Below, one piece after another: positions 2,687-19,729 of a stretch of 64,000 nt of DNA. The number at the start of each line of letters is the position of its first letter. The first letter of the stretch is position 1. Below the pieces are notes generated by a model. The model had not been told where the DNA came from. It searched no databases and saw only the letters and a list, made by a program, of their open reading frames with translations. Position numbers and translations under genes: made by a program. This stretch comes from Escherichia coli (lineage in GTDB: Bacteria; Pseudomonadota; Gammaproteobacteria; Enterobacterales; Enterobacteriaceae), in assembly GCF_029227855.1 (NCBI RefSeq), contig NZ_CP074356.1, one strand, 5' to 3'.

Positions 2687-3140
2687 CCATATAACCCGTT
2701 ATCTCTTTCTCAAGTTTTTATATTAGCAGTACTCGTATTAAGCAACATATCCACGTAACACCTCATGTTCAAAATAGCTCTCCATATATGAGAAGTTCAC
2801 AATTATCGATACAAAAAATCAAATTTAATCAAAGTGTTATTTGTATAATCCTTAAACCGTTAAGAAATTTTAACATATTATTTTTTTAATATTAATTAAT
2901 GCCTGTTAATTTTTTCTTTAGAATAACAGTGTATTTTTTAAGCTTGTTATTCATTGATTAAGTAATAAATCTGGAAATTTGTCTTTGTTTTGAGGCTAAT
3001 GAGTGATTTTACATAATCGCCTCTATACGCTGTTGATGAATAGTTCTTATGAATAAAGATATCCAGTTCATACTTTAAGTGAAAATTGATAAAGTACGGT
3101 TCGCGTTGTCTTTTATTCTAAGGACATCGAGTGTAGTTAA

Positions 3141-3278
3141 TATTCCTTGTAAAAACAGGGATAAACCGAACTAGTTAAAGTTTTTATTATGTTCCCTGCA
3201 TCAGCGGGGATAAACCGGACTTGTTATCATTTTTTAAGTTGTCGAACTTATGTTCCCCGCGCCAGCGGGGATAACCAT
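3141..3278 (+). CRISPR. Degenerate CRISPR remnant (three decayed repeat copies, one 32-bp spacer)
   Basis: Repeat-like copies at about 3141-3168 (TATTCCTTGTAAAAACAGGGATAAACCG), 3189-3217 (ATGTTCCCTGCATCAGCGGGGATAAACCG) and 3250-3278 (ATGTTCCCCGCGCCAGCGGGGATAACCAT); the last two are separated by exactly 32 bp. Confidence 0.6.
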
Positions 3279-3323
3279 TCAGGTATGTTCAGGCCGGGCA
3301 GTTTCCCGCCCGGCCTTCCTCAC

Positions 3324-4802
3324 TTACGCATTCGACCAGCTCTGGATCGAATCCGCATTCCCCAATTCCCCATGCATCACTTCATACGATTTTTTCAGGA
3401 TTACATCAGTATGTTTGGTTAACTCCTTGAAAATGCCTTTATTCATCGCGTTGTAGCGTTTGGCGTTGCTCTCAACAGGCATAAAGATATCTTTCACGCG
3501 AACCATTTTGTCGACAGCCGTTGCGTAATCCGGGTATAGCCCCAGACCTACCGCCGTATTAATCGCTGCCCCCAGGCTTGCACAACCGTTAATGGCGTTA
3601 CGGCGTGCCGGAAGGTTGAACACGTCGGCAAAAATTTGCATAAACAGATCGCTGTTCGAACCGCCGCCAGTAATGATCACATGCTTTGCAAAGTGATTCA
3701 TTTCATGACACATATTGTCGTAATTGTTCTTCAGCGTCAGCGCCACGCTTTCCAGAATCGAACGATATATCCATGCGTAATCCATGCTGGAATCAAAGCC
3801 GATCATAATCCCGCGTTTGTACGGTTCCCACGGATTGGTCAGCCAGTCCAGCACCGTCATCAGACCATTACAGCCTGGCGGCACACAAGACGCTTTTTTG
3901 TTGAGTAAATCTTCCGGTGAAAGATCCTGCGCCCTGGCATCCTGAATTAACGACTCGCCTAGCATGTCGCGCAGCCAGCTCACCGTCCACATGCCTTTGC
4001 GAATACCGTAACCTTCATACAGCAATGTTTGCGGAATAGAAGACATAATCGGCCAGTACGCTACCGGATCTTTCGGCAGTGCTTTGCCGTTCATCATCAA
4101 CGCGATGTAAGTGCCAAGAGAAATTACCGCAGTTTCATCATCCAGTAACCCGGCTCCCAGTGCTTCTACCGGTTTATCACTGGTGGTACAAACAACCGGC
4201 AGCCCAGCTGGGAAATGTGTCGCCAGCGCGGCTTGAGGAGTGATATGCCCAAGAACAGTGCCCGGCATTTGCACATCAAACAGCATATGACGGGGGATAT
4301 TAAACTTCTCCATGACTGCGGCATCTTCACTCCATGCCCAGGTCTTATAATCCACCGGCCACTGACCAAAATAGTTGGCGATATTGTCTTTAAACTCGCC
4401 GGTTAAGCGATGCGTCAGATAACCTGAAAAAGAGGTGACATATGCCACGTCAGGATTCGTATGTTCGTAAGGGCGTGTAACGCGTGCATCCTGCCAGCTA
4501 ATCAACGGCGCAGCTGGCGTGCCATCGGCTTTCAATAACGCACGGCAGCAACGGATGGATCCCAGACCAATACCGACAATATCTTCTTTATTCCCGGCAA
4601 ACTGACTCATCAAATCGTGACCGGCAAAACATAATGATGCCCATAAATCGTCGTCAGGATGTTCTGCGGTATCGGCATCTGGCGTGTGCATCGGCTGCAA
4701 TAAGCCTTTGCCTTCGCAAACCACATTACCTTCCAGATCATACATCACCACTTTTGTGCTCTGACTTCCACCATCAATCCCTATGATGTATTTTTTCGAC
4801 AT
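3324..4802 (-). CDS. ygcE: FGGY-family carbohydrate kinase
   Basis: 492-aa ORF MSKKYIIGIDGGSQSTKVVMYDL...; glycerol/xylulose-kinase-like N-terminus; K-12 synteny (yqcE-ygcE pair). Confidence 0.85.
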   Translation of the reverse strand: MSKKYIIGIDGGSQSTKVVMYDLEGNVVCEGKGLLQPMHTPDADTAEHPDDDLWASLCFAGHDLMSQFAGNKEDIVGIGLGSIRCCRALLKADGTPAAPLISWQDARVTRPYEHTNPDVAYVTSFSGYLTHRLTGEFKDNIANYFGQWPVDYKTWAWSEDAAVMEKFNIPRHMLFDVQMPGTVLGHITPQAALATHFPAGLPVVCTTSDKPVEALGAGLLDDETAVISLGTYIALMMNGKALPKDPVAYWPIMSSIPQTLLYEGYGIRKGMWTVSWLRDMLGESLIQDARAQDLSPEDLLNKKASCVPPGCNGLMTVLDWLTNPWEPYKRGIMIGFDSSMDYAWIYRSILESVALTLKNNYDNMCHEMNHFAKHVIITGGGSNSDLFMQIFADVFNLPARRNAINGCASLGAAINTAVGLGLYPDYATAVDKMVRVKDIFMPVESNAKRYNAMNKGIFKELTKHTDVILKKSYEVMHGELGNADSIQSWSNA

Positions 4803-4828
4803 GATTTTTCTCCTGTAATTTTCTGGAC

Positions 4829-6106
4829 TTACTTGCTGCTAGCCATAGCAGGGGCGCTATCAGCAGTACGAATTTTTTGGAACAGCAAAAAGGTAAAGAC
4901 GATCACCATGGCAAGCGCCGCCATGCCCATCAGCCACATATTGCGGTAGGCTTCTGCAGCGGGCAGGGTGTCTTGCCAGTAGCCGATAATCGAGTAAACG
5001 AAGACATCCGGCAGGAATCCAATCACCGAACAAATACCTACCGTGGTGCCCATAATGTAAGACGGTGTTCTCGCTTCGCCAGGGCAGGCCCAGTACAGCC
5101 CGCGTGAGGCGTAACAGGTGAATCCCAGCAGTAAAATCAGGCCAATCCCCATCGCGACCGATTGCGGGTTAGAGTTCGTGACGAGCAGGGCAGTTAACGC
5201 CAGCAAGCCGAGTACGGAAAGGATTTGGATCACGCGGGTAGGGGATTTCACTTTGCTGTAGGTGGTGATAATGCCGCCAAGTGGGCCGCACAGCGCGCGG
5301 AAGATTTTGTTGATCACAATCCCCATGTAGCTCGCCGCCACCAGCGACATGCCGTACATTTCGGTCAGATAGTTGGTGGAGTAACTCAGAATGGCGTAGA
5401 TGGTGAAGACGCCAAAAATCACCATGCTGCAATACCAGGTGGTGCTGATGCGCAAAACGGCCAGGATGTCGCTAAGCTGGAATGACTGTTTTTCTTCGTT
5501 ATTGGCACTGCGCAGATTGTTGTTATCGCTAACAAAAAACCAGCACAGAATCCCCAACAAGATGTAAACCACACTATAGATGATGATGACCGTTTTCAGA
5601 CTGGCGCTGTCATCCGGAGCGAAGCGAGAAAAGACCCACATGGTAAACACCGCCAGCGACATTACACCGACGCCGCGCAGCCCTTCCATCCAGCCCATAA
5701 TTTTCCCTTGCTCGCTATGATCGCCCAGCAATGAGGCGGCTTTAATCGACACCGACCACAGCATTAAAATAGTGGTTATCGCAAAGGCGACCTGAATACA
5801 GAGCATTACCCACAGCGGTGGATATGTTGCCATTAACAGACCCAGTAATCCGGTAATGATCATCGCGGAAGTAATCATTTTGCGGTGTGAAAATTTATCG
5901 GCAATAACGCCGCTGGGGGCATAAAGAATAATGGCCGCAATACCAAATGTACTCATTATTAAACCTATCTCGGTATTGCTGAATCCCATAAATTTCGCCA
6001 TGGGAATTTGATAAATATAACGTAAATACGCCAGGTCGAAACTAACGCCGCCGCTAAAACTAATTATCGCGAGGGTTATCCAACGGCGATATGAGTTGTG
6101 TTGCAT
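4829..6106 (-). CDS. yqcE: MFS-family transporter
   Basis: Track ORF 4829-6283; start taken at the internal ATG (MQHNSYRRWITLAIISFSGG..., 425 aa) because the upstream extension runs through the leader terminator; multiple hydrophobic helices. Confidence 0.8.
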   Translation of the reverse strand: MQHNSYRRWITLAIISFSGGVSFDLAYLRYIYQIPMAKFMGFSNTEIGLIMSTFGIAAIILYAPSGVIADKFSHRKMITSAMIITGLLGLLMATYPPLWVMLCIQVAFAITTILMLWSVSIKAASLLGDHSEQGKIMGWMEGLRGVGVMSLAVFTMWVFSRFAPDDSASLKTVIIIYSVVYILLGILCWFFVSDNNNLRSANNEEKQSFQLSDILAVLRISTTWYCSMVIFGVFTIYAILSYSTNYLTEMYGMSLVAASYMGIVINKIFRALCGPLGGIITTYSKVKSPTRVIQILSVLGLLALTALLVTNSNPQSVAMGIGLILLLGFTCYASRGLYWACPGEARTPSYIMGTTVGICSVIGFLPDVFVYSIIGYWQDTLPAAEAYRNMWLMGMAALAMVIVFTFLLFQKIRTADSAPAMASSK

Positions 6107-6130
6107 ATCGTATTCCCATTTGTAATAGAC

Positions 6131-6179
6131 AAAAAAAAAGAGAAAAGTAAGCCGCCCTTTCAGGTGGATTACTTTTCTC
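6131..6179 (-). terminator. Intrinsic terminator in the 5' leader of yqcE (11-bp stem GAGAAAAGTAA/TTACTTTTCTC followed by U9 on the minus-strand RNA)
   Basis: Perfect inverted repeat 6140-6150 / 6169-6179 followed on the minus strand by nine U (complement of A9 at 6131-6139), ending 24 nt before the yqcE ATG. Confidence 0.6.
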
Positions 6180-6354
6180 AGGTCTCTAGTAATTGCAATA
6201 AGAAATAACATGGAAAGCAGTGGTGTTGTGTGAGAGTAATCACGCTTCTGCTTTTTAAAATTATTTGACAATTCGAATATCACACTGTGATTACGATCAC
6301 ATTAGCGATTATGCCCTTATGATAAAAATTATCTCCAGTTACCAGAGATAATGA

Positions 6355-6401
6355 GAAAGGTAACTTCCCTCTCGCGGGGGAAGTTACCTTTCTTTTTTTT
6401 T
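6355..6401 (+). terminator. Intrinsic terminator in the 5' leader of ygcW (15-bp stem GAAAGGTAACTTCCC/GGGAAGTTACCTTTC followed by T9)
   Basis: Perfect 15-bp inverted repeat 6355-6369 / 6378-6392, 8-nt loop, then nine T at 6393-6401; the ygcW ATG at 6426 follows 24 nt later, so transcripts must pass the hairpin. Confidence 0.65.
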
Positions 6402-6425
6402 GCCTTACGGAAATTGGAGCTAACT

Positions 6426-7211
6426 ATGTCAATCGAATCTCTCAATGCGTTCTCAATGGATTTTTTCTCCCTGAAAGGTAAAACCGCTATTGTTACCGGC
6501 GGGAATAGCGGTTTAGGCCAGGCATTTGCCATGGCGCTGGCCAAAGCCGGCGCAAATATCTTTATTCCAAGCTTCGTTAAAGATAACGGCGAAACAAAGG
6601 GAATGATTGAAAAACAGGGTGTTGAAGTTGATTTTATGCAGGTGGATATCACCGCAAAAGGCGCGCCGCAGAAGATAATCGCCGCCTGTTGCGAACGTTT
6701 CGGTACCGTCGATATTCTGATTAACAATGCCGGTATTTGTAAGCTGAATAAGGTGCTGGACTTCGGTCGTGCCGACTGGGACCCGATGATTGATGTGAAC
6801 CTGACCGCCGCATTCGAGTTAAGCTATGAAGCTGCAAAAATTATGATCCCGCAGAAAAGCGGTAAAATCATTAATATCTGTTCATTATTCTCTTACTTAG
6901 GTGGACAATGGTCACCTGCATATTCTGCCACTAAACATGCTCTTGCCGGGTTCACCAAAGCTTATTGTGATGAACTAGGTCAATATAATATTCAGGTGAA
7001 TGGTATTGCTCCGGGATATTACGCTACCGATATCACTCTGGCGACCCGTAGTAATCCAGAAACTAACCAGCGCGTTCTTGATCATATTCCGGCAAACCGT
7101 TGGGGCGATACTCAGGATTTAATGGGCGCAGCCGTATTCCTCGCAAGTCCGGCATCGAATTATGTCAACGGACATTTATTAGTGGTCGATGGCGGTTATT
7201 TAGTGCGCTAA
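6426..7211 (+). CDS. ygcW: Short-chain dehydrogenase/reductase (SDR)
   Basis: Track ORF 6351-7211; start taken at internal ATG (MSIESLNAFSMDFFSLKGKTAIVTGGNSGLGQAF..., 261 aa) with GGAG RBS; TGxxxGxG Rossmann motif. Confidence 0.85.
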   Translation: MSIESLNAFSMDFFSLKGKTAIVTGGNSGLGQAFAMALAKAGANIFIPSFVKDNGETKGMIEKQGVEVDFMQVDITAKGAPQKIIAACCERFGTVDILINNAGICKLNKVLDFGRADWDPMIDVNLTAAFELSYEAAKIMIPQKSGKIINICSLFSYLGGQWSPAYSATKHALAGFTKAYCDELGQYNIQVNGIAPGYYATDITLATRSNPETNQRVLDHIPANRWGDTQDLMGAAVFLASPASNYVNGHLLVVDGGYLVR

Positions 7212-7280
7212 TCCATAACGGTGGTTTCTGTTTTCTCTTATTAATGATTATTCCATTTTTATTATCAGGAAGGAATTACT

Positions 7281-8735
7281 ATGTCTTTATCTCGCGCAGC
7301 GATTGTCGACCAGCTAAAGGAAATTGTTGGTGCAGATCGCGTAATTACCGATGAAACAGTATTAAAGAAAAACAGTATTGACCGTTTTCGCAAATTTCCG
7401 GATATTCATGGCATTTATACTTTGCCGATTCCGGCAGCGGTCGTAAAACTCGGTTCCACAGAACAAGTATCCCGTGTGCTGAATTTTATGAATGCGCACA
7501 AAATTAACGGTGTGCCGCGTACCGGTGCTTCCGCTACCGAAGGTGGGCTGGAAACCGTTGTGGAAAACTCGGTGGTGCTCGACGGCTCCGCCATGAATCA
7601 AATCATTAATATTGATATTGAGAATATGCAGGCCACGGCGCAATGTGGCGTTCCGCTGGAGGTGCTGGAAAACGCGTTGCGTGAAAAAGGTTACACCACG
7701 GGGCATTCTCCGCAGTCAAAGCCGCTGGCGCAGATGGGCGGCCTGGTAGCAACCCGCAGTATCGGGCAGTTCTCCACACTCTACGGCGCAATCGAAGATA
7801 TGGTCGTTGGTCTGGAAGCAGTACTGGCAGATGGCACCGTAACACGCATTAAAAACGTACCACGCCGCGCGGCAGGCCCGGACATTCGTCACATCATCAT
7901 CGGCAACGAAGGTGCATTGTGCTATATCACTGAAGTAACTGTGAAAATCTTTAAGTTCACCCCGGAAAACAACCTCTTCTACGGCTATATCCTGGAAGAC
8001 ATGAAAACCGGCTTCAACATCCTGCGTGAAATCATGGTGGAAGGGTATCGTCCGTCGATCGCTCGTTTGTATGACGCTGAAGATGGCACCCAACACTTCA
8101 CCTATTTTGCCGATGGTAAATGTGTGCTGATCTTTATGGCTGAAGGTAACCCTCGCATTGCGAAGGCGACAGGCGAAGGGATTGCGGAAATCGTGGCACG
8201 TTACCCGCAATGCCAGCGAGTGGACAGCAAGCTGATCGAAACCTGGTTTAATCACCTGAACTGGGGGCCGGATAAAGTGGCCGCTGAACGTGTGCAGATC
8301 CTCAAAACCGGCAACATGGGCTTTACCACCGAAGTGTCCGGCTGCTGGAGCTGCATCCACGAAATCTACGAAAGCGTTATTAACCGTATTCGTACCGAGT
8401 TCCCGCACGCCGACGACATCACCATGCTGGGCGGTCACTCCTCTCACAGCTACCAGAACGGTACCAACATGTACTTCGTTTACGACTACAACGTTGTTGA
8501 CTGTAAGCCGGAAGAGGAAATCGACAAGTACCACAATCCGCTCAACAAAATCATCTGCGAAGAAACCATTCGCCTCGGCGGTTCGATGGTGCACCACCAC
8601 GGTATTGGTAAACATCGCGTTCACTGGAGCAAACTGGAACACGGCAGCGCGTGGACGTTGCTGGAAGGTTTGAAAAAACAGTTCGATCCTAACGGCATTA
8701 TGAATACGGGTACTATCTATCCGATTGAAAAATAA
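7281..8735 (+). CDS. ygcU: FAD-linked oxidase (GlcD / alkyl-DHAP-synthase-like)
   Basis: 484-aa ORF MSLSRAAIVDQLKEIVGADRVITDE...; FAD-binding PCMH-type architecture by recalled similarity. Confidence 0.85.
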   Translation: MSLSRAAIVDQLKEIVGADRVITDETVLKKNSIDRFRKFPDIHGIYTLPIPAAVVKLGSTEQVSRVLNFMNAHKINGVPRTGASATEGGLETVVENSVVLDGSAMNQIINIDIENMQATAQCGVPLEVLENALREKGYTTGHSPQSKPLAQMGGLVATRSIGQFSTLYGAIEDMVVGLEAVLADGTVTRIKNVPRRAAGPDIRHIIIGNEGALCYITEVTVKIFKFTPENNLFYGYILEDMKTGFNILREIMVEGYRPSIARLYDAEDGTQHFTYFADGKCVLIFMAEGNPRIAKATGEGIAEIVARYPQCQRVDSKLIETWFNHLNWGPDKVAAERVQILKTGNMGFTTEVSGCWSCIHEIYESVINRIRTEFPHADDITMLGGHSSHSYQNGTNMYFVYDYNVVDCKPEEEIDKYHNPLNKIICEETIRLGGSMVHHHGIGKHRVHWSKLEHGSAWTLLEGLKKQFDPNGIMNTGTIYPIEK

Positions 8736-8827
8736 TGTGTGAGGCAGCGTTCCGCTATGAGGGGCGTTGCCTTTTCGGCTTCTCAGGCGAGAAGCCGTTC
8801 TTATTACCGGACAATGAAGGGGTAAAG

Positions 8828-10165
8828 ATGAACACTTCACCGGTGCGAATGGATGATTTACCGCTTAACCGTTTTCACTGTCGAATTGCTGCGCTCACTT
8901 TCGGCGCGCACCTGACCGACGGTTATGTTCTCGGCGTCATTGGTTACGCCATTATTCAGCTTACGCCCGCCATGCAACTGACGCCGTTTATGGCGGGAAT
9001 GATTGGCGGCTCGGCGCTACTTGGCCTGTTTATCGGTAGCCTGGTTTTGGGGTGGATCTCCGACTATATTGGTCGGCAAAAAATCTTCACCTTCAGCTTT
9101 TTGCTGATTACGCTCGCTTCGTTCTTGCAATTTTTTGCCACCACTCCAGAGCATCTTATTGGACTACGCATTTTGATCGGCATTGGTCTGGGAGGCGATT
9201 ACTCAGTCGGTCACACCTTGCTGGCTGAATTTTCCCCGCGCCGCCATCGCGGTATTTTGCTTGGCGCATTCAGTGTGGTGTGGACCGTAGGCTATGTGCT
9301 GGCAAGTATTGCCGGACATCACTTTATTAGCGAAAGCCCGGAGGCCTGGCGCTGGCTGCTGGCATCAGCGGCGTTACCAGCCTTGCTGATTACGCTGCTA
9401 CGTTGGGGAACGCCAGAATCGCCACGCTGGCTACTGCGCCAGGGGCGTTTTGCAGAAGCTCACGCTATCGTGCATCGCTATTTTGGTCCCCATGTTTTAC
9501 TGGGCGATGAAGTGGCAACAGCGACCCATAAACACATCAAAACCTTGTTCTCTTCGCGCTACTGGCGGCGCACAGCGTTTAACAGCGTCTTCTTTGTCTG
9601 CCTAGTAATCCCATGGTTTGTGATTTATACCTGGCTGCCAACTATCGCCCAAACTATTGGTCTGGAAGATGCGCTGACCGCTAGCCTGATGCTTAATGCG
9701 TTGTTAATTGTGGGCGCGCTGCTGGGATTAGTTCTGACGCACCTGCTGGCACATCGCAAATTTTTGCTGGGAAGTTTTTTGTTGCTGGCGGCAACGCTGG
9801 TAGTAATGGCCTGTTTGCCTTCCGGCAGTTCATTAACGCTGCTGCTTTTTGTTCTCTTCAGCACCACCATTTCGGCAGTCAGTAATCTGGTGGGCATTTT
9901 GCCTGCGGAAAGTTTTCCTACTGACATTCGCTCGCTGGGCGTCGGTTTTGCCACCGCCATGAGTCGGTTGGGCGCGGCGGTAAGTACTGGCCTGCTGCCG
10001 TGGGTGCTGGCGCAGTGGGGAATGCAAGTCACCTTATTGCTCCTGGCGGCAGTGTTGTTGGTTGGTTTTGTCGTGACCTGGCTATGGGCACCAGAAACCA
10101 AAGCACTCCCGCTGGTGGCGGCGGGAAATGTTGGAGGTGCGAATGAACATTCTGTTAGCGTTTAA
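8828..10165 (+). CDS. ygcS: MFS-family transporter
   Basis: Track ORF 8735-10165; start at internal ATG with GAAGGGG RBS (MNTSPVRMDDLPLNRFHCRIAALTFGAH..., 445 aa); polytopic membrane protein. Confidence 0.8.
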   Translation: MNTSPVRMDDLPLNRFHCRIAALTFGAHLTDGYVLGVIGYAIIQLTPAMQLTPFMAGMIGGSALLGLFIGSLVLGWISDYIGRQKIFTFSFLLITLASFLQFFATTPEHLIGLRILIGIGLGGDYSVGHTLLAEFSPRRHRGILLGAFSVVWTVGYVLASIAGHHFISESPEAWRWLLASAALPALLITLLRWGTPESPRWLLRQGRFAEAHAIVHRYFGPHVLLGDEVATATHKHIKTLFSSRYWRRTAFNSVFFVCLVIPWFVIYTWLPTIAQTIGLEDALTASLMLNALLIVGALLGLVLTHLLAHRKFLLGSFLLLAATLVVMACLPSGSSLTLLLFVLFSTTISAVSNLVGILPAESFPTDIRSLGVGFATAMSRLGAAVSTGLLPWVLAQWGMQVTLLLLAAVLLVGFVVTWLWAPETKALPLVAAGNVGGANEHSVSV

Positions 10166-10922
10166 AGCCGAACCGGATGCCGGAATGCTGGCGGAAAAAG
10201 AGTGGCAGGCGGCGGCTCAGGGTAATAGCGGACCGGATGTTTCGCTTCTGCGAAGTTTGCTCGGTGCTGATGAACAGGCTGCCGCCGCGCTGCTGATGGC
10301 GCAGAGAAAAAACGGTACGTCGATGTCTTTAACCGCGTTGAGCATGGGGGATGAACGGGCGTTGCACTGGCTGCGCTATCTTATGGCTCTTGGGTTTGAG
10401 GAAGCTGTATTGCTGGAGACGGCGGCAGATCTGCGCTTTGCGCCGGAATTTGTCGCTCGCCATATTGCCGAATGGCAGAACCAGAATCCGCTGGAGCTGA
10501 TAATTACTGGCTGCCAAAGCAGCGAAGGGCAGAATGGGCAAACGCCATTTTTGCTGGCGGAAATGCTGGGCTGGCCCTGCTTCACCCAGGTGGAGCGTTT
10601 TACTCTCGACGCGCCGTTTATCACCCTTGAACAGCGTACTGAAAACGGGCTGCGCTGTTGCCGGGTTCGCTTGCCTGCGGTGATTGCCGTGCGTCAGTGC
10701 GGTGAAGTGGCCTTGCCAGTACCGGGAATGCGTCAGCGAATGGCGGCGGGGAAAGCAGCAATTATCCGTAAAACTGTTGCTGCCGAATCGCCAGCGATGC
10801 AGTGTCTGCAACTGGCAAGAGCAGAGCAACAACGCGGAGCGACGCTGATTGATGGGCAAACGGTAGCAGAAAAAGCGCAAAAGCTATGGCAGGACTATTT
10901 ACGCCAAAGGATGCAGCCATGA
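10143..10922 (+). CDS. ygcR: Electron-transfer flavoprotein beta-like subunit (FixA-like)
   Basis: Track ORF 10128-10922; start at ATG after GGAGGT RBS (MNILLAFKAEPDAGML...); ETF-beta family by recalled similarity. Confidence 0.8.
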   Translation: MNILLAFKAEPDAGMLAEKEWQAAAQGNSGPDVSLLRSLLGADEQAAAALLMAQRKNGTSMSLTALSMGDERALHWLRYLMALGFEEAVLLETAADLRFAPEFVARHIAEWQNQNPLELIITGCQSSEGQNGQTPFLLAEMLGWPCFTQVERFTLDAPFITLEQRTENGLRCCRVRLPAVIAVRQCGEVALPVPGMRQRMAAGKAAIIRKTVAAESPAMQCLQLARAEQQRGATLIDGQTVAEKAQKLWQDYLRQRMQP

Positions 10923-11779
10923 ATATCGCAATTGTGACAATAAATCAGGAGAATGCCGCAATAGCGAGCTGGCTGGCAGAACAGGATTTCAGCGGTTGTA
11001 CCCTGGCACACTGGCAGATTGAACCTCAGCCCGTAGTGGCGGAACAGGTGCTGGATGCGCTGGTGGAACAGTGGCAGCGAACGCCTGCGGACGTTGTTCT
11101 CTTTCCGCCGGGAACGTTTGGCGATGAACTGTCGACCCGGCTGGCCTGGCGTTTACATGGAGCAAGCATCTGCCAGGTGACTTCGTTAGATATTCCAACC
11201 GTAAGCGTGCGCAAATCCCACTGGGGAAATGCGCTAACGGCGACGCTGCAAACAGAAAAACGCCCGCTATGCCTTTCCCTGGCGCGTCAGGCGGGAGCAG
11301 CGAAAAACGCCACGTTGCCCTCTGGTATGCAGCAACTGAACATTGTCCCAGGTGCGCTTCCCGACTGGCTGGTTAGCATAGAGAATCTGAAAAATGTTAG
11401 CCGCGACCCATTAGCTGAAGCCAGACGGGTGCTGGTGGTGGGGCAGGGCGGAGAGGCAGATAACCAGGAAATCGCTATGCTGGCAGAAAAGCTGGGAGCC
11501 GAAGTGGGCTACAGTCGGGCGCGAGTGATGAACGGTGGCGTTGATGCTGAAAAAGTGATTGGTATTTCCGGACATCTGCTGGCACCTGAGGTGTGTATTG
11601 TTGTTGGCGCTTCCGGCGCAGCAGCGTTAATGGCGGGCGTACGCAATAGCAAGTTTGTGGTGGCGATTAATCATGACGCCAGCGCAACGGTATTTTCACA
11701 GGCAGATGTTGGCGTGGTTGATGACTGGAAAGTGGTGCTGGAGGCACTGGTGACAAACATTCACGCAGAATGCCAATAA
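10919..11779 (+). CDS. ygcQ: Electron-transfer flavoprotein alpha-like subunit (FixB-like)
   Basis: Track ORF 10886-11779; start at ATG overlapping the ygcR stop (MNIAIVTINQENAA...); ETF-alpha C-terminal FAD-binding region. Confidence 0.8.
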   Translation: MNIAIVTINQENAAIASWLAEQDFSGCTLAHWQIEPQPVVAEQVLDALVEQWQRTPADVVLFPPGTFGDELSTRLAWRLHGASICQVTSLDIPTVSVRKSHWGNALTATLQTEKRPLCLSLARQAGAAKNATLPSGMQQLNIVPGALPDWLVSIENLKNVSRDPLAEARRVLVVGQGGEADNQEIAMLAEKLGAEVGYSRARVMNGGVDAEKVIGISGHLLAPEVCIVVGASGAAALMAGVRNSKFVVAINHDASATVFSQADVGVVDDWKVVLEALVTNIHAECQ

Positions 11780-11789
11780 CGTGCAGCCG

Positions 11790-11870
11790 GATGATCCTGC
11801 CTACGGTTCCGGGCTGGGGACTTGTAAGCCTGATAAGACGCGTCAAGCGTCGCATCAGGCGCTGAATGTC
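11790..11870. repeat. REP (repetitive extragenic palindromic) elements between convergent ygcQ and ygcP
   Basis: GCCTGATAAGACGCGTCAAGCGTCGCATCAGGCGC-type palindromic units typical of E. coli REP sequences. Confidence 0.5.
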
Positions 11871-11925
11871 GGATGTTGCGTGCAGCCTACAAATCACACA
11901 AATTCAACTCGTTACGAGTATCCCG

Positions 11926-12501
11926 TCAAAGCAATTTTTTCGCTAACGTCCAGACCCCGGTATTCGTGGTGGAAAGCGCCACAACACCCGCGTTAATCGC
12001 ATTACGCGCATCTTCTTCATCGCACACCAGCCCGCCGGCAATCAGCGGTTGGCGGATTTTCTCCGTCACCCAGCCCAGCACTTTAGGCATACAGCCTGGC
12101 AGGATCTCAATACAATCCGGATTCGATTGCGCAACTTGCTTATCAATGTTGTGAAACGAAATCGAATCAACAATAAACAGGCGATGAATACAGAAAAAAC
12201 CTTCCGCTCTTGCCGCTTTCAGCATCGATGCTTTCGTGCTGATAATGCCGTCCGCCTCGGTCACCAGTTTCAGAAACTGAATCACCACTTCTTTGTTCGA
12301 TGCGCCTTCCAGCAAATCAACATGAATAAAAGCATATTTCCCGGCGTTCTTAATCTTTTTAACGATATTACTGATGGTGCAGATATTGCCGTACAACACT
12401 GAAATAAACTGGCATTCAGAATCGATTGCCAGTTGCAGGCTGGCATTATCTTTAACGGCAGCAATCACCGGATTCTGGCGGAGCAGGTGTAAGAGGGGCA
12501 T
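11926..12501 (-). CDS. ygcP: GlpP-family (glycerol-3-phosphate-responsive-type) antiterminator homolog
   Basis: 191-aa ORF MPLLHLLRQNPVIAAVKDNASLQLAIDSECQFISVLYGNI...; recalled similarity to the Bacillus GlpP antiterminator family. Confidence 0.8.
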   Translation of the reverse strand: MPLLHLLRQNPVIAAVKDNASLQLAIDSECQFISVLYGNICTISNIVKKIKNAGKYAFIHVDLLEGASNKEVVIQFLKLVTEADGIISTKASMLKAARAEGFFCIHRLFIVDSISFHNIDKQVAQSNPDCIEILPGCMPKVLGWVTEKIRQPLIAGGLVCDEEDARNAINAGVVALSTTNTGVWTLAKKLL

Positions 12502-12517
12502 AAATTATCCTTATTAT

Positions 12518-12778
12518 TTATCCAAAGCGGTAGGTGATGCCGAATCCGGAAGGCGGATAGCGCCACTGTTGTAGTGTTGATTCGTCGCACAGCAAACGGC
12601 AGGTGCCACACTCCAGGCAGCCGCGATAATCAACGCGTAAGTCACCTTCCGGTGTGAGCGAAAAAAGACCAGCTGGACAAGCGTTAATCAACCGTTGTAC
12701 CGTCTGGCGCTCAACGGAGTCAGCCGGAACAATGTGCGGCGCATCGGCAACGCGCCAGAGATTACGGGCTACAGACAT
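12518..12778 (-). CDS. ygcO: Ferredoxin-like protein (FixX-like)
   Basis: Track ORF 12518-12814; start taken at MSVARNLWRV... (86 aa); cysteine-rich motif CLECGTC. Confidence 0.75.
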   Translation of the reverse strand: MSVARNLWRVADAPHIVPADSVERQTVQRLINACPAGLFSLTPEGDLRVDYRGCLECGTCRLLCDESTLQQWRYPPSGFGITYRFG

Positions 12779-14040
12779 CGCAGACTCCTGATAACATCGC
12801 CCGCCAGATGCCACAGGCCGTGACGACGTAAATGACGCCAGAATAACTGGCGCAGCGGTGGAACAGGTTTATCACCCTGATCCCATAAATCACGGGAAAT
12901 ATCCTGCATTAACGCAGGCCACGCACGGTACCATCCAGGGCGTTGCAAAAGCGCCGGAACATGCTGATAACGTTGTAGAACATCCCATAGCAGGCTGCGC
13001 TCTACGTTGTGATGATAAAGCGCAAACAGATTTTGCGGCTCGCGGTGCTGGCAGGCGCTTATCAGCGTTTGTGCCGCCGCCTGCGCGCCAGTCAGCGCCA
13101 TATCCATGCCGCGCACGGAAATTCCGGTATTGACGCAACTGCGCAACGCATCGCCCACCAGCAGCCAGCCGTTACCGGCGTATTGCACCGGCATACTGTG
13201 CAAGCCACCTTCTGGCACCAGATGCGCACCATACTCCAGTGATTCCGTGTTTTTGATAAGCGGGCGCACTGCCGGATGCGTTTTAAAGCGAGCCAGCAGC
13301 TCGCTTGCCGGAACACGACTTTGCGTAAGGGAAGAGAGCGGGCAAACAATCCCTAACGAGAGCGTTTGTTGATTAGTATAAAGAAATGCGCCGCCGGGTA
13401 AGTCATCACAGATCCCGCCGCTGAACAGCAACGCTGCGCCTTCGTTATTCTCCAGATGAAAACGTTCTTCAATAGCGGATGTTTCCAGCGACAGCACTTC
13501 TTTGATCCCCAACGCCATCGCTTCGCCAGCAGGACGAGTCACTAACCCGTGACGTTCAGCCAGGACGCTGTTGGCACCTTCTGCCAGCACCACATAACGG
13601 GCGCGGAGAATATCGTCACCACAAATGACACCACACACCCTGCCGTTTTCTTCATACAGCGCATCCACCGTCGCACCGGGGATGCATTCGACACCTTCTT
13701 TTTCGGCTTCGGCAACCAGCCACGGATCGAACCGTGCACGTAATACACTCCAGGATTCACGGCCGGGCTGTAAGCTGGAAAACGTCGTTGCGCCATCCGG
13801 CGTTAGCAGAGAAAGGCTTTCGTGAGTGATGCGTCGTTCAAGAGGCGCGGTCAGATGAAATTGCGGGAGGAGTTCCGCGAGCGCATGGGTGTATAAACGC
13901 CCGCCGGAAAGATTTTTGCTGCCGGGGATTTCAGCGCGTTCCAGTAACAGAACGGACAAACCTGCCCGCGTGCAGCGTAACGCGCAAGCGGTGCCTGCTA
14001 TACCCGCACCAATAATAATAATGTCGCAGTTGTCTTCCAT
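12769..14040 (-). CDS. ygcN: FAD-dependent oxidoreductase (FixC / ETF-quinone-oxidoreductase-like)
   Basis: Track ORF 12769-14070; start at MEDNCDIIIIGAGIAGTACALR... (423 aa) with dinucleotide-binding GxGxxG motif. Confidence 0.8.
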   Translation of the reverse strand: MEDNCDIIIIGAGIAGTACALRCTRAGLSVLLLERAEIPGSKNLSGGRLYTHALAELLPQFHLTAPLERRITHESLSLLTPDGATTFSSLQPGRESWSVLRARFDPWLVAEAEKEGVECIPGATVDALYEENGRVCGVICGDDILRARYVVLAEGANSVLAERHGLVTRPAGEAMALGIKEVLSLETSAIEERFHLENNEGAALLFSGGICDDLPGGAFLYTNQQTLSLGIVCPLSSLTQSRVPASELLARFKTHPAVRPLIKNTESLEYGAHLVPEGGLHSMPVQYAGNGWLLVGDALRSCVNTGISVRGMDMALTGAQAAAQTLISACQHREPQNLFALYHHNVERSLLWDVLQRYQHVPALLQRPGWYRAWPALMQDISRDLWDQGDKPVPPLRQLFWRHLRRHGLWHLAGDVIRSLRCL

Positions 14041-14117
14041 GTCATGCCCCAGATATCCAGAACACAACACCCTAACATGGCGTTACTTAAGGGAAATTGA
14101 CCGCCGACACACTCTTA

Positions 14118-14483
14118 TCATTCGCCGCGATAGATACAGCCTGCAGTACAGGTTTCTTTTACCATCACCGCACTTAACAGCGGCACAACCGGTTTAACTT
14201 GATCCCAAATCCATTTTGCTAAAACTTCGCTGGTTGGGTTTTCCAGACCTGGAATATCATTGAGATAATGGTGATCGAGACGCTCGTAGGTTGGCTTAAA
14301 CGCCGCTTTCAGTTCAGCGAAATCGATAATCCAGCCCGTATGCGGATCGACTTCCCCGGTGATTTCCAGTCGCACCATAAAGGAATGCCCGTGCAGGCGA
14401 CCACATTTATGCCCTTCCGGGACGTGTGGTAAGCGGTGAGCGGCTTCGAAGGTGAAATCTTTAAATAACGTGGTGGACATCAT
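14118..14483 (-). CDS. queD: 6-carboxy-5,6,7,8-tetrahydropterin synthase
   Basis: Track ORF 14118-14567; start at [35 protein letters not shown]... (121 aa); PTPS family Cys/His motifs. Confidence 0.85.
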
Positions 14484-14798
14484 AATTTCTCTACAGGACG
14501 ATAAAACCGCCGTAGAGTACCGGAAAGCCTGTTTTTTCGCATTACTAAAAACGGGTTTGTTGCGCAAAATGACCGATTTAACTTAATTGTGGCCGATATT
14601 TATCTATTTTTCATAGAGTTAATAAATCTATTTTGTTGTTAAAGACTATTGCTAAAACAGGTTAGTCGATTTGGTTATTAGTTATCGCTATCCCGTCTTT
14701 AATCCATCCCCTTCGCGCCGTTAACCTTACCTTCTCTTCTGTTTTATGGGCGCTGACAGGGCCGATAAACAGCTTTGCTTACTGGAACATAACGACGC

Positions 14799-16598
14799 AT
14801 GACGACACAGGTCCCACCTTCCGCTTTGCTTCCGCTGAACCCGGAGCAACTGGCACGCCTCCAGGCGGCCACAACCGATTTAACGCCCACCCAGCTTGCC
14901 TGGGTTTCTGGCTATTTCTGGGGAGTGCTTAACCAGCAACCTGCTGCGCTTGCAGCGACGCCAGCTCCTGGTGCAGAAATGCCGGGTATAACGATTATCT
15001 CTGCTTCGCAAACCGGCAATGCGCGTCGGGTCGCCGAAGCATTACGCGATGATTTATTAGCGGCAAAACTGAACGTTAAGCTGGTGAACGCGGGCGACTA
15101 TAAATTCAAACAAATCGCCAGTGAAAAACTGCTTATCGTGGTGACGTCAACACAAGGGGAAGGGGAGCCGCCGGAAGAAGCCGTCGCGCTGCATAAGTTC
15201 CTGTTCTCCAAAAAAGCGCCGAAGCTGGAAAACACCTCGTTTGCTGTGTTTAGCCTCGGCGATAGCTCTTATGAATTTTTCTGCCAGTCCGGGAAAGATT
15301 TCGACAGCAAGCTGGCGGAACTTGGCGGTGAACGCCTGCTCGATCGTGTCGATGCCGATGTTGAATACCAGGCTGCCGCCAGCGAATGGCGCGCCCGCGT
15401 GGTTGATGTACTGAAATCGCGCGCGCCTGTCGCAGCACCTTCACAATCCGTCGCCACTGGTGCGGTGAATGAAATCCACACCAGCCCATACAGCAAAGAA
15501 GCGCCGCTGGTGGCGAGTCTCTCTGTTAACCAGAGAATTACTGGACGTAACTCTGAAAAAGACGTTCGCCATATCGAAATTGACTTAGGCGACTCTGGCC
15601 TGCGTTATCAGCCGGGCGATGCGCTGGGTGTCTGGTATCAGAACGATCCGGCACTGGTTAAAGAACTTGTCGAACTGCTGTGGCTGAAAGGCGATGAACC
15701 CGTCACCGTTGATGGCAAAACGCTGACTCTGAGTGAAGCGCTACAGTGGCATTTTGAATTGACGGTTAACACCGCCAACATCGTTGAGAACTACGCCACG
15801 CTTACCCGCAGTGAAACGCTGCTACCACTGGTGGGCGATAAAGCGAAATTGCAGCATTACGCCGCGACCACCCCAATTGTCGACATGGTGCGTTTCTCTC
15901 CGGCGCAACTGGATGCCGAAGCGCTGATTAATCTGCTGCGTCCGCTGACCCCGCGCCTGTATTCCATCGCCTCCTCGCAGGCGGAAGTCGAGAACGAAGT
16001 ACATGTCACCGTTGGTGTGGTGCGTTACGACGTGGAAGGCCGAGCCCGTGCCGGTGGTGCCTCCAGCTTCCTCGCGGATCGCGTGGAAGAAGAGGGTGAA
16101 GTCCGCGTCTTTATCGAACATAACGATAACTTCCGCCTGCCAGCCAATCCGGAAACGCCGGTGATTATGATTGGCCCAGGCACCGGCATCGCGCCGTTCC
16201 GCGCCTTTATGCAGCAACGCGCCGCCGACGAAGCGCCGGGGAAAAACTGGCTGTTCTTTGGCAACCCGCACTTTACGGAAGATTTCCTCTACCAGGTGGA
16301 ATGGCAGCGCTACGTCAAAGAGGGCGTGCTGACGCGTATCGATCTTGCCTGGTCGCGCGATCAAAAAGAAAAAATTTACGTACAAGACAAACTGCGCGAA
16401 CAGGGCGCAGAGCTGTGGCGCTGGATCAATGACGGTGCCCACATTTATGTCTGCGGCGACGCTAATCGCATGGCGAAAGACGTTGAGCAGGCACTTCTGG
16501 AAGTGATTGCCGAATTTGGTGGCATGGACACCGAAGCGGCGGATGAATTTTTAAGTGAGCTGCGCGTAGAGCGCCGTTATCAGCGAGATGTCTACTAA
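14799..16598 (+). CDS. cysJ: Sulfite reductase [NADPH] flavoprotein alpha component
   Basis: 599-aa [33 protein letters not shown]...; flavodoxin plus FAD/NADPH domains; cysJIH order. Confidence 0.95.
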
Positions 16599-19343: not shown

Positions 19344-19382
19344 AATTCGAATGTTAGTCTCTTCTTTGCAGGGAGGCAAGAC

Positions 19383-19535
19383 ATGCTGACAAAATATGCC
19401 CTTGTGGCAATCATCGTACTGTGTTGTACAGTACTGGGATTCACGCTGATGGTAGGCGACTCGTTGTGTGAGTTGAGTATCAGAGAACGTGGTATGGAGT
19501 TTAAGGCAGTTCTCGCTTACGAATCGAAGAAGTAG
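19383..19535 (+). CDS. hokX: Hok-family small membrane toxin (type I toxin-antitoxin)
   Basis: 50-codon [53 protein letters not shown] with GGGAGG RBS 6 nt upstream; hydrophobic helix plus conserved Hok/Gef C-terminal pattern; below the ORF-track size cut-off. Confidence 0.75.
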
Positions 19536-19729
19536 CCACCACGCGGGGGTAAAACCCCGCGTATTGAATTGTGATGGTTTGGTCTCCTGCACCCTTTTTT
19601 AATTTATATTGTTTATGTGAATATTATGCCTATGTTTATTATTCATATATATTACGGATGAAAATTATTTGATTATTCATAATGTAAATATTTTATTGAA
19701 CGATATATATCACAGATAATTTTTAATAT

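Follow-up and report, generated by a model that had tools for sequence, protein, structure and literature searches.

In the glycerol regulon of Bacillus subtilis, proteins of the GlpP family relieve terminators located in the leaders of the target operons (PMC10573289). This regulon, which comprises GlpP, the leader terminators of glpD, glpFK and glpTQ, the kinase GlpK and the flavoprotein GlpD, is the closest described regulatory counterpart of the ygc gene cluster analysed here, which occupies positions 3324-14040 of a 64-kb stretch of Escherichia coli DNA (contig NZ_CP074356.1; hereafter the window). Like the glycerol regulon, ygc has a G3P_antiterm protein (YgcP), target operons with intrinsic terminators in their leaders, and an FGGY kinase and a flavoprotein in one regulon; by analogy, its inducer would be expected to be the phosphorylated product of the kinase (PMC10573289). 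Unlike it, ygc has a flavoprotein of the VAO/AGPS fold instead of GlpD/GlpA, transporters of the MFS, BCCT or OpuC-like type instead of GlpF, and an obligatory short-chain dehydrogenase/reductase (SDR).

Other described systems resemble parts of the cluster. As in FixABCX and YdiQRST, ygc encodes EtfB-, EtfA-, FixC- and FixX-like proteins, for which a route from a flavoprotein dehydrogenase to quinone would be expected. However, ygc distributes the subunits between two transcription units, YgcR and YgcQ diverge strongly (44-77 bits), and the genes for the electron-transfer flavoprotein (ETF) and FixCX are under relaxed constraint and are not co-conserved with the catabolic core. Alkyl-dihydroxyacetone phosphate (DHAP) synthase (AGPS), a flavoenzyme that carries out no net redox reaction, shares with YgcU the two-domain FAD_binding_4/FAD-oxidase_C architecture and the conserved catalytic Arg, Tyr and His-His-His loop, but ygcU stands beside ETF genes in many genomes and belongs to a catabolic cluster for a soluble substrate, not to ether-lipid synthesis. 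Finally, as in LctBCD (a GlcD-family flavoprotein with EtfAB), the gene of a VAO-family flavoprotein adjoins etfB-etfA, and in anaerobes a second GlcD-like oxidase and an EtfA with a ferredoxin domain accompany ygcU. In contrast to LctBCD, YgcU scores far better to AGPS than to LctD/GlcD, and its HHHG takes the place of the EHG seen in one checked GlcD-like paralogue (c129).

The ygc cluster is among the larger E. coli gene blocks still without a function. An earlier note made from the sequence (the original prediction) took it for one catabolic module that oxidises a sugar or polyol derivative, with a private ETF chain as the electron route, and considered its substrate not established. Our literature search found no paper characterising the cluster and no functional study of any ygc gene, only mentions in expression or screening work and a PhyloScan prediction of a CRP site. 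In the present analysis, we describe two leader RNAs, an addition beyond the original prediction, and the conserved core of genes that they would control.

Two leader RNAs in the yqcE/ygcW intergenic region

The 319-nt region between the divergent genes yqcE and ygcW contains a CRP palindrome and two strong terminators, one facing each operon. Each terminator is part of a leader RNA of about 75 nt located right at the inferred transcription start of ygcWUSRQ or yqcE-ygcE. The transcription starts were inferred from conserved extended -10 boxes, and the leaders were searched with a covariance model, R1, built from 55 copies (alignment A2). The features of the region are as follows.

6327-6404, plus strand: ygcW leader RNA (R1, 76.1 bits, E 2.4e-12; folds)
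6337-6343 and 6359-6365, plus strand: helix P1 of the ygcW leader, 5' arm AGUUACC and 3' arm GGUAACU
6344-6358, plus strand: purine loop of the ygcW leader, AGAGAUAAUGAGAAA
6353-6394, plus strand: terminator of the ygcW leader, 19-bp stem, with a U-run to 6401
6130-6204, minus strand: yqcE leader RNA (R1, 76.5 bits, E 2e-12; folds)
6194-6188 and 6173-6167, minus strand: helix P1 of the yqcE leader, 5' arm and 3' arm
6187-6174, minus strand: purine loop of the yqcE leader, AGAGACCUGAGAAA
6179-6140, minus strand: terminator hairpin of the yqcE leader, with a U-run at 6139-6131
6286-6301, no strand: predicted CRP-binding palindrome, perfect, between the divergent promoters, TGTGAttacgaTCACA (read from the sequence)

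From 5' to 3', a conserved extended -10 box is followed after about 7 nt by the P1 5' arm (A)GUUACY, the purine loop AGAGA-N3-5-GAGAAA, the segment RGUAAC, the remaining terminator and a U7-9 run. The segment RGUAAC doubles as the 3' arm of P1 and as a section of the 5' arm of the terminator, which GAGAAA(G/A)GUAA opens in both leaders, and P1 and the intrinsic terminator are shown to be mutually exclusive. For the two leaders, the fold energies were -6.1 and -1.4 kcal/mol for P1 alone and -31 and -21 kcal/mol for the terminators. Because P1 is weak and the terminator is strong, termination would be the default outcome, and a factor would be needed to hold P1.

Both helices are supported by covariation. 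Compensatory changes were found at 11 of the 16 terminator pairs and at five of the seven P1 positions, and 106 of 109 distinct sequences pair at six or more of the seven positions of P1, whereas shuffled upstream sequence reached this in 23 cases on average and in 35 at most. R1 detects exactly two sense copies in the 64-kb window, and in total 112 sense matches in 83 loci. The ygcW leader is unannotated, yet it is present in 5063 of 5426 E. coli genomes (~93%) and at least 99% identical in 4465 of them. When positions 3000-15000 were scanned against Rfam with E up to 1, nothing relevant was obtained, only a weak match to REP/naRNA4. The leader is a new conserved cis-regulatory RNA, neither annotated nor present in Rfam. 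In MG1655, RNA-seq and northern blotting have revealed a small RNA that lies on the yqcE strand, upstream of the gene (PMC4681348), and this fits the terminated form of the yqcE leader.

About 42 bp separate the CRP palindrome from the inferred ygcW start downstream of it, and PhyloScan ranked the yqcE/ygcW CRP site second genome-wide (PMC1794230).

Distribution of the leader and its probable link to YgcP

The leader is found at homologous positions upstream of ygcW and yqcE homologues throughout Enterobacterales, and also in Photobacterium, Sporomusa, Geosporobacter, Dethiosulfatibacter, Halobacillus, Thalassobacillus, Virgibacillus, Saccharopolyspora and others, so that it spans at least five phyla. 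The genes directly 3' of it are ygcW-led operons (41), yqcE-led operons (40), ygcU (5) and BCCT transporter genes (3), together with operons for OpuC-like ABC transporters. In several Clostridia and one gammaproteobacterial contig, a second copy stands directly upstream of ygcU within the operon (L063:9842-9913, L065:9823-9914, L069:8707-8799, L084:9851-9942 and L062:1734-1804), which gives two attenuation points in series.

Occurrence of the leader follows that of ygcP. It is present in 58 of 59 ygcP-bearing loci (L064 counted) and absent from all 16 untruncated loci that have no ygcP (Fisher p 3e-11, without phylogenetic correction). Four loci seem to break the rule: three are contigs that are short or truncated, and in the fourth, Serratia microhaemolytica (L033), ygcP is on another contig. 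YgcP is a full-length member of PF04309 (E 1.6e-62, model positions 1-173 of 173) and matches the solved structures 3kts and 1vkf. From this co-occurrence and the precedent of the family, YgcP probably reads both leaders.

It has also to be considered that the leaders are not targets of YgcP but metabolite-binding riboswitches, or a bidirectional terminator pair insulating the divergent operons. A conserved single-stranded loop with alternative helices is indeed riboswitch-like. We nevertheless find this explanation very unlikely in view of the association with ygcP described above, and also because the sensing part, with about 30 nt and a single weak helix, is too simple for a typical ligand pocket. 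In addition, the position between a conserved -10 box and a start codon marks the element as a 5' leader and not a 3' terminator, and a role at leader terminators is established for proteins of the GlpP family (PMC10573289).

In four GlpP loci of the glycerol type, no R1 match was significant (the best reached 14.7 bits, E 0.23), and YgcP is just 33-35% identical to the GlpPs of these glycerol-cluster loci. Judged by these comparisons in the four loci sampled, the ygc leader is an RNA distinct from the leaders of the glycerol regulon. The two leaders should report the inducer, which would allow candidate compounds to be screened with leader-reporter fusions.

Gene map and family assignments

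The region 3324-14040 is E. coli chromosome with 100% identity to NZ_AP045174.1, and 5060 of 5426 complete E. coli genomes hold at least 80% of it. RefSeq annotation and open reading frames (ORFs) give ten ygc genes, all with intact ORFs, in three orientation blocks: yqcE-ygcE (minus), ygcW-ygcU-ygcS-ygcR-ygcQ (plus) and ygcN-ygcO-ygcP (minus). The original prediction had spoken of eleven genes, a number that does not stand and exceeds the ten it named itself, and its three transcription units fit the three blocks.

3324-4802, minus strand: ygcE, FGGY-family kinase, core (NCBIfam; RefSeq annotation)
4829-6106, minus strand: yqcE, MFS transporter (anion:cation symporter-like), heads the yqcE-ygcE operon (NCBIfam)
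6426-7211, plus strand: ygcW, SDR oxidoreductase of the KduD/gluconate-5-dehydrogenase type, core (NCBIfam)
7281-8735, plus strand: ygcU, FAD-linked flavoenzyme resembling alkyl-DHAP synthase, core (profile search)
8828-10165, plus strand: ygcS, MFS transporter (sugar-porter/aromatic-acid symporter-like) (NCBIfam)
10143-10922, plus strand: ygcR, divergent ETF beta-like subunit, accessory (44-49 bits to ETF beta)
10919-11779, plus strand: ygcQ, divergent ETF alpha-like subunit, accessory (77 bits; ETF_alpha FAD-binding domain, E 2.5e-17)
11926-12501, minus strand: ygcP, GlpP-family (G3P_antiterm) RNA-binding antiterminator (PF04309)
12518-12778, minus strand: ygcO, FixX-like ferredoxin, accessory (84 bits against a cutoff of 166)
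12769-14040, minus strand: ygcN, FixC-like flavoprotein, putative ETF:quinone oxidoreductase, accessory (NCBIfam)

All family assignments proposed earlier hold in NCBIfam and Pfam scans: FGGY kinase for ygcE, MFS for yqcE and ygcS, KduD-like SDR for ygcW, FAD-linked oxidase for ygcU, EtfB-like for ygcR, EtfA-like for ygcQ, FixC-like for ygcN, FixX-like for ygcO and G3P_antiterm for ygcP. Since none of the ten proteins reaches the curated cutoff of a named NCBIfam equivalog, none of them is a known enzyme. YqcE matches two transporter subfamilies weakly (D-galactonate and PgtP), YgcN reaches 384 bits against PRK10015 and 366 bits against FixC, under the cutoff in either case, and the ygcR reading frame overlaps those of ygcS and ygcQ.

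A conserved three-enzyme core and accessory electron-transfer genes

For the neighbourhood comparison, one genome per species was taken, which gave 80 loci out of at least 553 matches, and gene content was determined with a tblastn panel and de novo ORF clustering; in the high-GC Saccharopolyspora loci, gene order was obtained from tblastn only. As shown by this sample, ygcW, ygcU and ygcE occur together in every sufficiently long locus, usually with ygcP, and this set, usually with ygcP and a transporter, is the unit conserved across at least five phyla. The minimal gene set for study is ygcW, ygcE, ygcU and ygcP plus a transporter. No aldolase or isomerase was found in the conserved core of the 80 loci.

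The remaining genes are distributed differently. The ETF pair ygcR/ygcQ is present in Enterobacteriaceae and strict anaerobes and absent from Erwinia, Pantoea, Izhakiella, halophilic Bacillaceae, Saccharopolyspora and SAR324; at least 15 loci in six or more lineages have ygcW, ygcU and ygcE without any ETF. The genes ygcN/ygcO are confined to those Enterobacterales that also carry the ETF pair; ygcS is found only in Enterobacterales loci, and yqcE in all Enterobacterales loci. In anaerobes, a second GlcD-like oxidase is often added, sometimes with a second ETF that has a ferredoxin domain.

The selective constraint follows the same division. The ratio of nonsynonymous to synonymous substitution rates (dN/dS) was 0.012-0.04 for ygcW, ygcU, ygcE and ygcP (0.013-0.027 for ygcW alone), 0.04-0.10 for the transporters, and 0.06-0.26 for ygcR, ygcQ, ygcN and ygcO (0.13-0.26 for ygcR alone), which corresponds to a 5-10 times faster evolution of the ETF/FixCX genes compared with the core. 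In YgcQ, the Arg of the SRA motif is kept, and the residues aligned to human Q285/H286 are changed. Taken together, the patchy occurrence of ETF/FixCX, the intact ORFs and the contrast in dN/dS indicate that the electron-transfer unit is functional yet a lifestyle-tied accessory outside the core.

One alternative, the model of the original prediction, takes the ten genes as a single obligatory pathway that oxidises a sugar or polyol derivative and needs a dedicated FixABCX-like chain to carry the electrons from YgcRQ via YgcNO to quinone. The ten genes are contiguous and co-retained in Enterobacteriaceae, the adjacency ygcU-ygcR-ygcQ recurs in at least 25 anaerobe loci, the FixC-like and FixX-like homology is clear, and the ETF/FixCX genes are intact and under purifying selection (dN/dS <0.3), all of which speak for it. 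However, the ETF-less loci, the absence of FixCX outside Enterobacterales and the faster evolution of these genes are difficult to reconcile with an obligatory chain, and the four ETF/FixCX genes are split over two transcription units of which only one has a leader. We consider a single ten-gene pathway unlikely. Thus, from the module originally proposed, the catabolic character stands (a CRP palindrome, a kinase, dehydrogenases, transporters and a regulator), but the obligatory unity of the ten genes does not, and the private ETF chain becomes a lineage-specific accessory.

That the E. coli cluster is a cryptic or decaying remnant without current function would agree with the lack of any growth substrate or phenotype in the literature search, with its absence from ~7% of complete E. 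coli genomes and with the relaxed constraint on the ETF genes. Ten intact ORFs, the low dN/dS of the core, the identity of the leader across 4465 genomes and the preservation of both regulatory elements leave this explanation with hardly any probability.

Some further observations concern these comparisons. YgcR and YgcQ are just 88-92% identical between this strain, E. coli E69 and E. albertii, compared with 98-99% for YgcW and YgcU, and the within-species divergence of the ETF pair is unusually high. Two loci with enteric-type gene order, in a Planctomycetota metagenome-assembled genome (L005) and in Chryseobacterium sp. 18061 (L028), encode a YgcU 99% and 89% identical to that of E. coli, respectively, and are likely assembly or binning contamination. 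In Alkalihalobacillus, a kinase-like gene after ygcU was dismissed as context (a macrolide phosphotransferase), the moeAB, iaaA and gsi-like genes beside the Erwinia and Pantoea clusters are chromosomal context only, and further neighbours in Halobacillus and Virgibacillus gave no pathway clue.

YgcU and the two possible roles of the flavoenzyme

YgcU shows exceptional conservation, the E. coli protein being 65-75% identical to those of Sporomusa, Halobacillus, Desulfobacula, Photobacterium and Saccharopolyspora, and its closest solved relative is AGPS (profile search: AGPS, E 1.2e-55; glycolate oxidase, 2e-36; LctD, 1e-25). Its residues R262, Y398 and H438-H440 align with R419, Y578 and H615-617 of AGPS and do not vary among the 12 sequences of alignment A1, which come from several phyla. 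YgcU has 484 residues against 658 in AGPS, and the alignment starts at AGPS residue 180, so that the first ~180 AGPS residues find no counterpart. Against the glcD family it reaches 146 bits for a cutoff of 568, and it has HHHG where the GlcD-like paralogue c129 (FADox2 of Photobacterium, L004) has GEHGLG. A protein with the catalytic residues of alkyl-DHAP synthase in such a cluster may carry out new chemistry.

YgcW scores 349 bits for a cutoff of 369 against KduD (PRK06935), close yet below, is 63-97% identical across phyla, and has KduD and gluconate 5-dehydrogenase (Gno) as its closest solved structures. The best NCBIfam matches of YgcE are XylB (143 bits, cutoff 380) and LsrK (139 bits), far under cutoff, and its closest solved structure is LsrK, the autoinducer-2 kinase. 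The family regiochemistry of KduD/Gno and of ulokinase/LsrK is the basis on which steps were assigned to YgcW and YgcE.

YgcU may have either of two roles: it may be a net dehydrogenase that feeds the ETF, or an AGPS-type displacement enzyme whose flavin the ETF would only keep in the oxidised state. Both roles are compatible with the absence of ETF from aerobes. In the displacement scheme, a compound X-CH2-CHOH-CH2OH would be converted by YgcW and YgcE to 1-X-dihydroxyacetone phosphate, from which YgcU would displace X through a flavin-N5 adduct to give DHAP, and the ETF would do no more than rescue accidentally reduced flavin without O2. Candidate starting compounds would be glycerophosphocholine, another glycerophosphodiester or a betaine-lipid head group. 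Besides the relationship to AGPS, the regiochemistry just mentioned fits this scheme (the family chemistry is taken from general knowledge), and a core that has no aldolase or isomerase suggests a product that is already central, such as DHAP. A GlpP paralogue would plausibly sense a glycerol-phosphate derivative, and the betaine-type transporters, MttB proteins and BADH-like dehydrogenase described below would handle the freed quaternary amine. On the other hand, the tight coupling of ygcU to ETF genes in anaerobes suggests stoichiometric electron transfer, glycerophosphodiesters are normally cut by simple phosphodiesterases at no cost of ATP, and YgcU lacks a counterpart to an N-terminal AGPS region that may serve in lipid binding. 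We regard the displacement scheme as doubtful.

The regulon outside enterics

In other phyla, the leader brings further genes under the same control. It heads BCCT and OpuC-like (betaine-type) transporters in halophiles and anaerobes, among which Halobacillus halophilus and Sporomusa have the BCCT version. In anaerobic Bacillota, MttB-family methyltransferases lie inside leader-controlled operons, and the clusters of Desulfobacula and Sporomusa adjoin genes for MttB, corrinoid proteins and methyltransferases. Some aerobes add a gene for a betaine aldehyde dehydrogenase (BADH)-like aldehyde dehydrogenase, an aldo-keto reductase, a formaldehyde-activating-enzyme homologue or a class III alcohol dehydrogenase. 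The BCCT, OpuC-like, MttB and BADH-like genes tie the pathway outside enterics to quaternary-ammonium (betaine-type) compounds, and with such transporters in the regulon the substrate class first proposed, a sugar or polyol, is too narrow. The transporters and methyltransferases under the same RNA control in halophiles and anaerobes thus offer a lead to the substrate.

A more specific proposal would be a cross-phylum pathway in which the AGPS-like YgcU strips the substituent from a glycerol-linked quaternary-ammonium compound or phosphodiester (for example, glycerophosphocholine or a betaine-lipid head group) to leave DHAP, under an antitermination RNA read by a GlpP paralogue; we put it forward as speculative.

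The formaldehyde-activating-enzyme homologue is above the NCBIfam cutoff (L034:2386-2889 and L050:6890-7390, with homologues in L039 and L048) and adjoins the aldo-keto reductase and the aldehyde dehydrogenase in Erwinia, Pantoea and SAR324 clusters. To our knowledge, Erwinia and Pantoea are not known to make tetrahydromethanopterin. Dihydroxypropanesulfonate (DHPS), 3,4-dihydroxybutyrate, erythritol/threitol, 1,2-propanediol, carnitine and choline were weighed as substrates on chemistry alone and set aside.

Proposed model

We favour, with reasonable though not high confidence, the explanation that ygc is a catabolite-controlled regulon governed by antitermination, with a three-enzyme core to which electron-transfer genes are attached as an accessory. 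CRP-cAMP would activate initiation, and YgcP, in complex with a phosphorylated intermediate of the pathway (as in the case of GlpP with glycerol-3-phosphate), would bind the purine loop and stabilise P1, which would allow RNA polymerase to read through. The substrate would enter through YqcE or YgcS. YgcW would then oxidise a secondary alcohol adjacent to a terminal CH2OH to the ketone, YgcE would phosphorylate the terminal CH2OH to give a DHAP-shaped ketol phosphate, and YgcU would act at the carbon beside the ketone. In gut and anaerobic lineages, the flavin of YgcU would be reoxidised via YgcRQ, and in Enterobacterales the electrons would pass onward via YgcN/YgcO to quinone. The substrate would be a small polar compound with a glycerol-like end, which in other phyla may be, or may release, a quaternary-ammonium compound.

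Several points weigh against this explanation. First, on the regulatory side, the binding of YgcP to the leader and the identity of the inducer are suggested by co-occurrence and family precedent, and the transcription starts are placed from -10 boxes. The CRP site is about 99 bp from the inferred yqcE start, which is an atypical distance. The ygcNOP unit has no leader, as a search of the 77-nt queD-ygcN gap found neither leader nor terminator, and the model does not account for its regulation. Second, on the enzymatic side, the order and regiochemistry of the three steps are modelled on family analogy, and the homology of YgcU to AGPS fits poorly with a net dehydrogenase that needs an ETF. 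Third, the E. coli transporters are MFS proteins and not betaine-type, so that enteric bacteria may use another substrate than the other phyla do.

Other features of the locus

In E. coli, ~7% of the complete genomes (363-366 of 5426) are without most of the ygc cluster and the leader, and in some other genomes an IS3 insertion lies within the cluster. Between ygcU and ygcS, a 9-bp GC-rich hairpin with a poor T-tail (8776-8797) could be a partial internal terminator that cuts the expression of ygcS, ygcR and ygcQ relative to that of ygcW and ygcU. The convergent ygcQ/ygcP gap contains a repetitive extragenic palindromic (REP)-type element (11827-11909) with a weak, below-threshold Rfam match to naRNA4.

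Upstream of the cluster, a type I-E CRISPR array (2170-2685; repeat GAGTTCCCCGCGCCAGCGGGGATAAACCG) lies between queE and ygcE. The gene queE and other upstream features are 61 nt off the position expected from the otherwise identical NZ_AP045174.1; one repeat-spacer difference at the array would fit this offset. On the other side, cas3 and a Hok/Gef gene are located downstream of cysH, at ~19380-20040 (by offset from L001).

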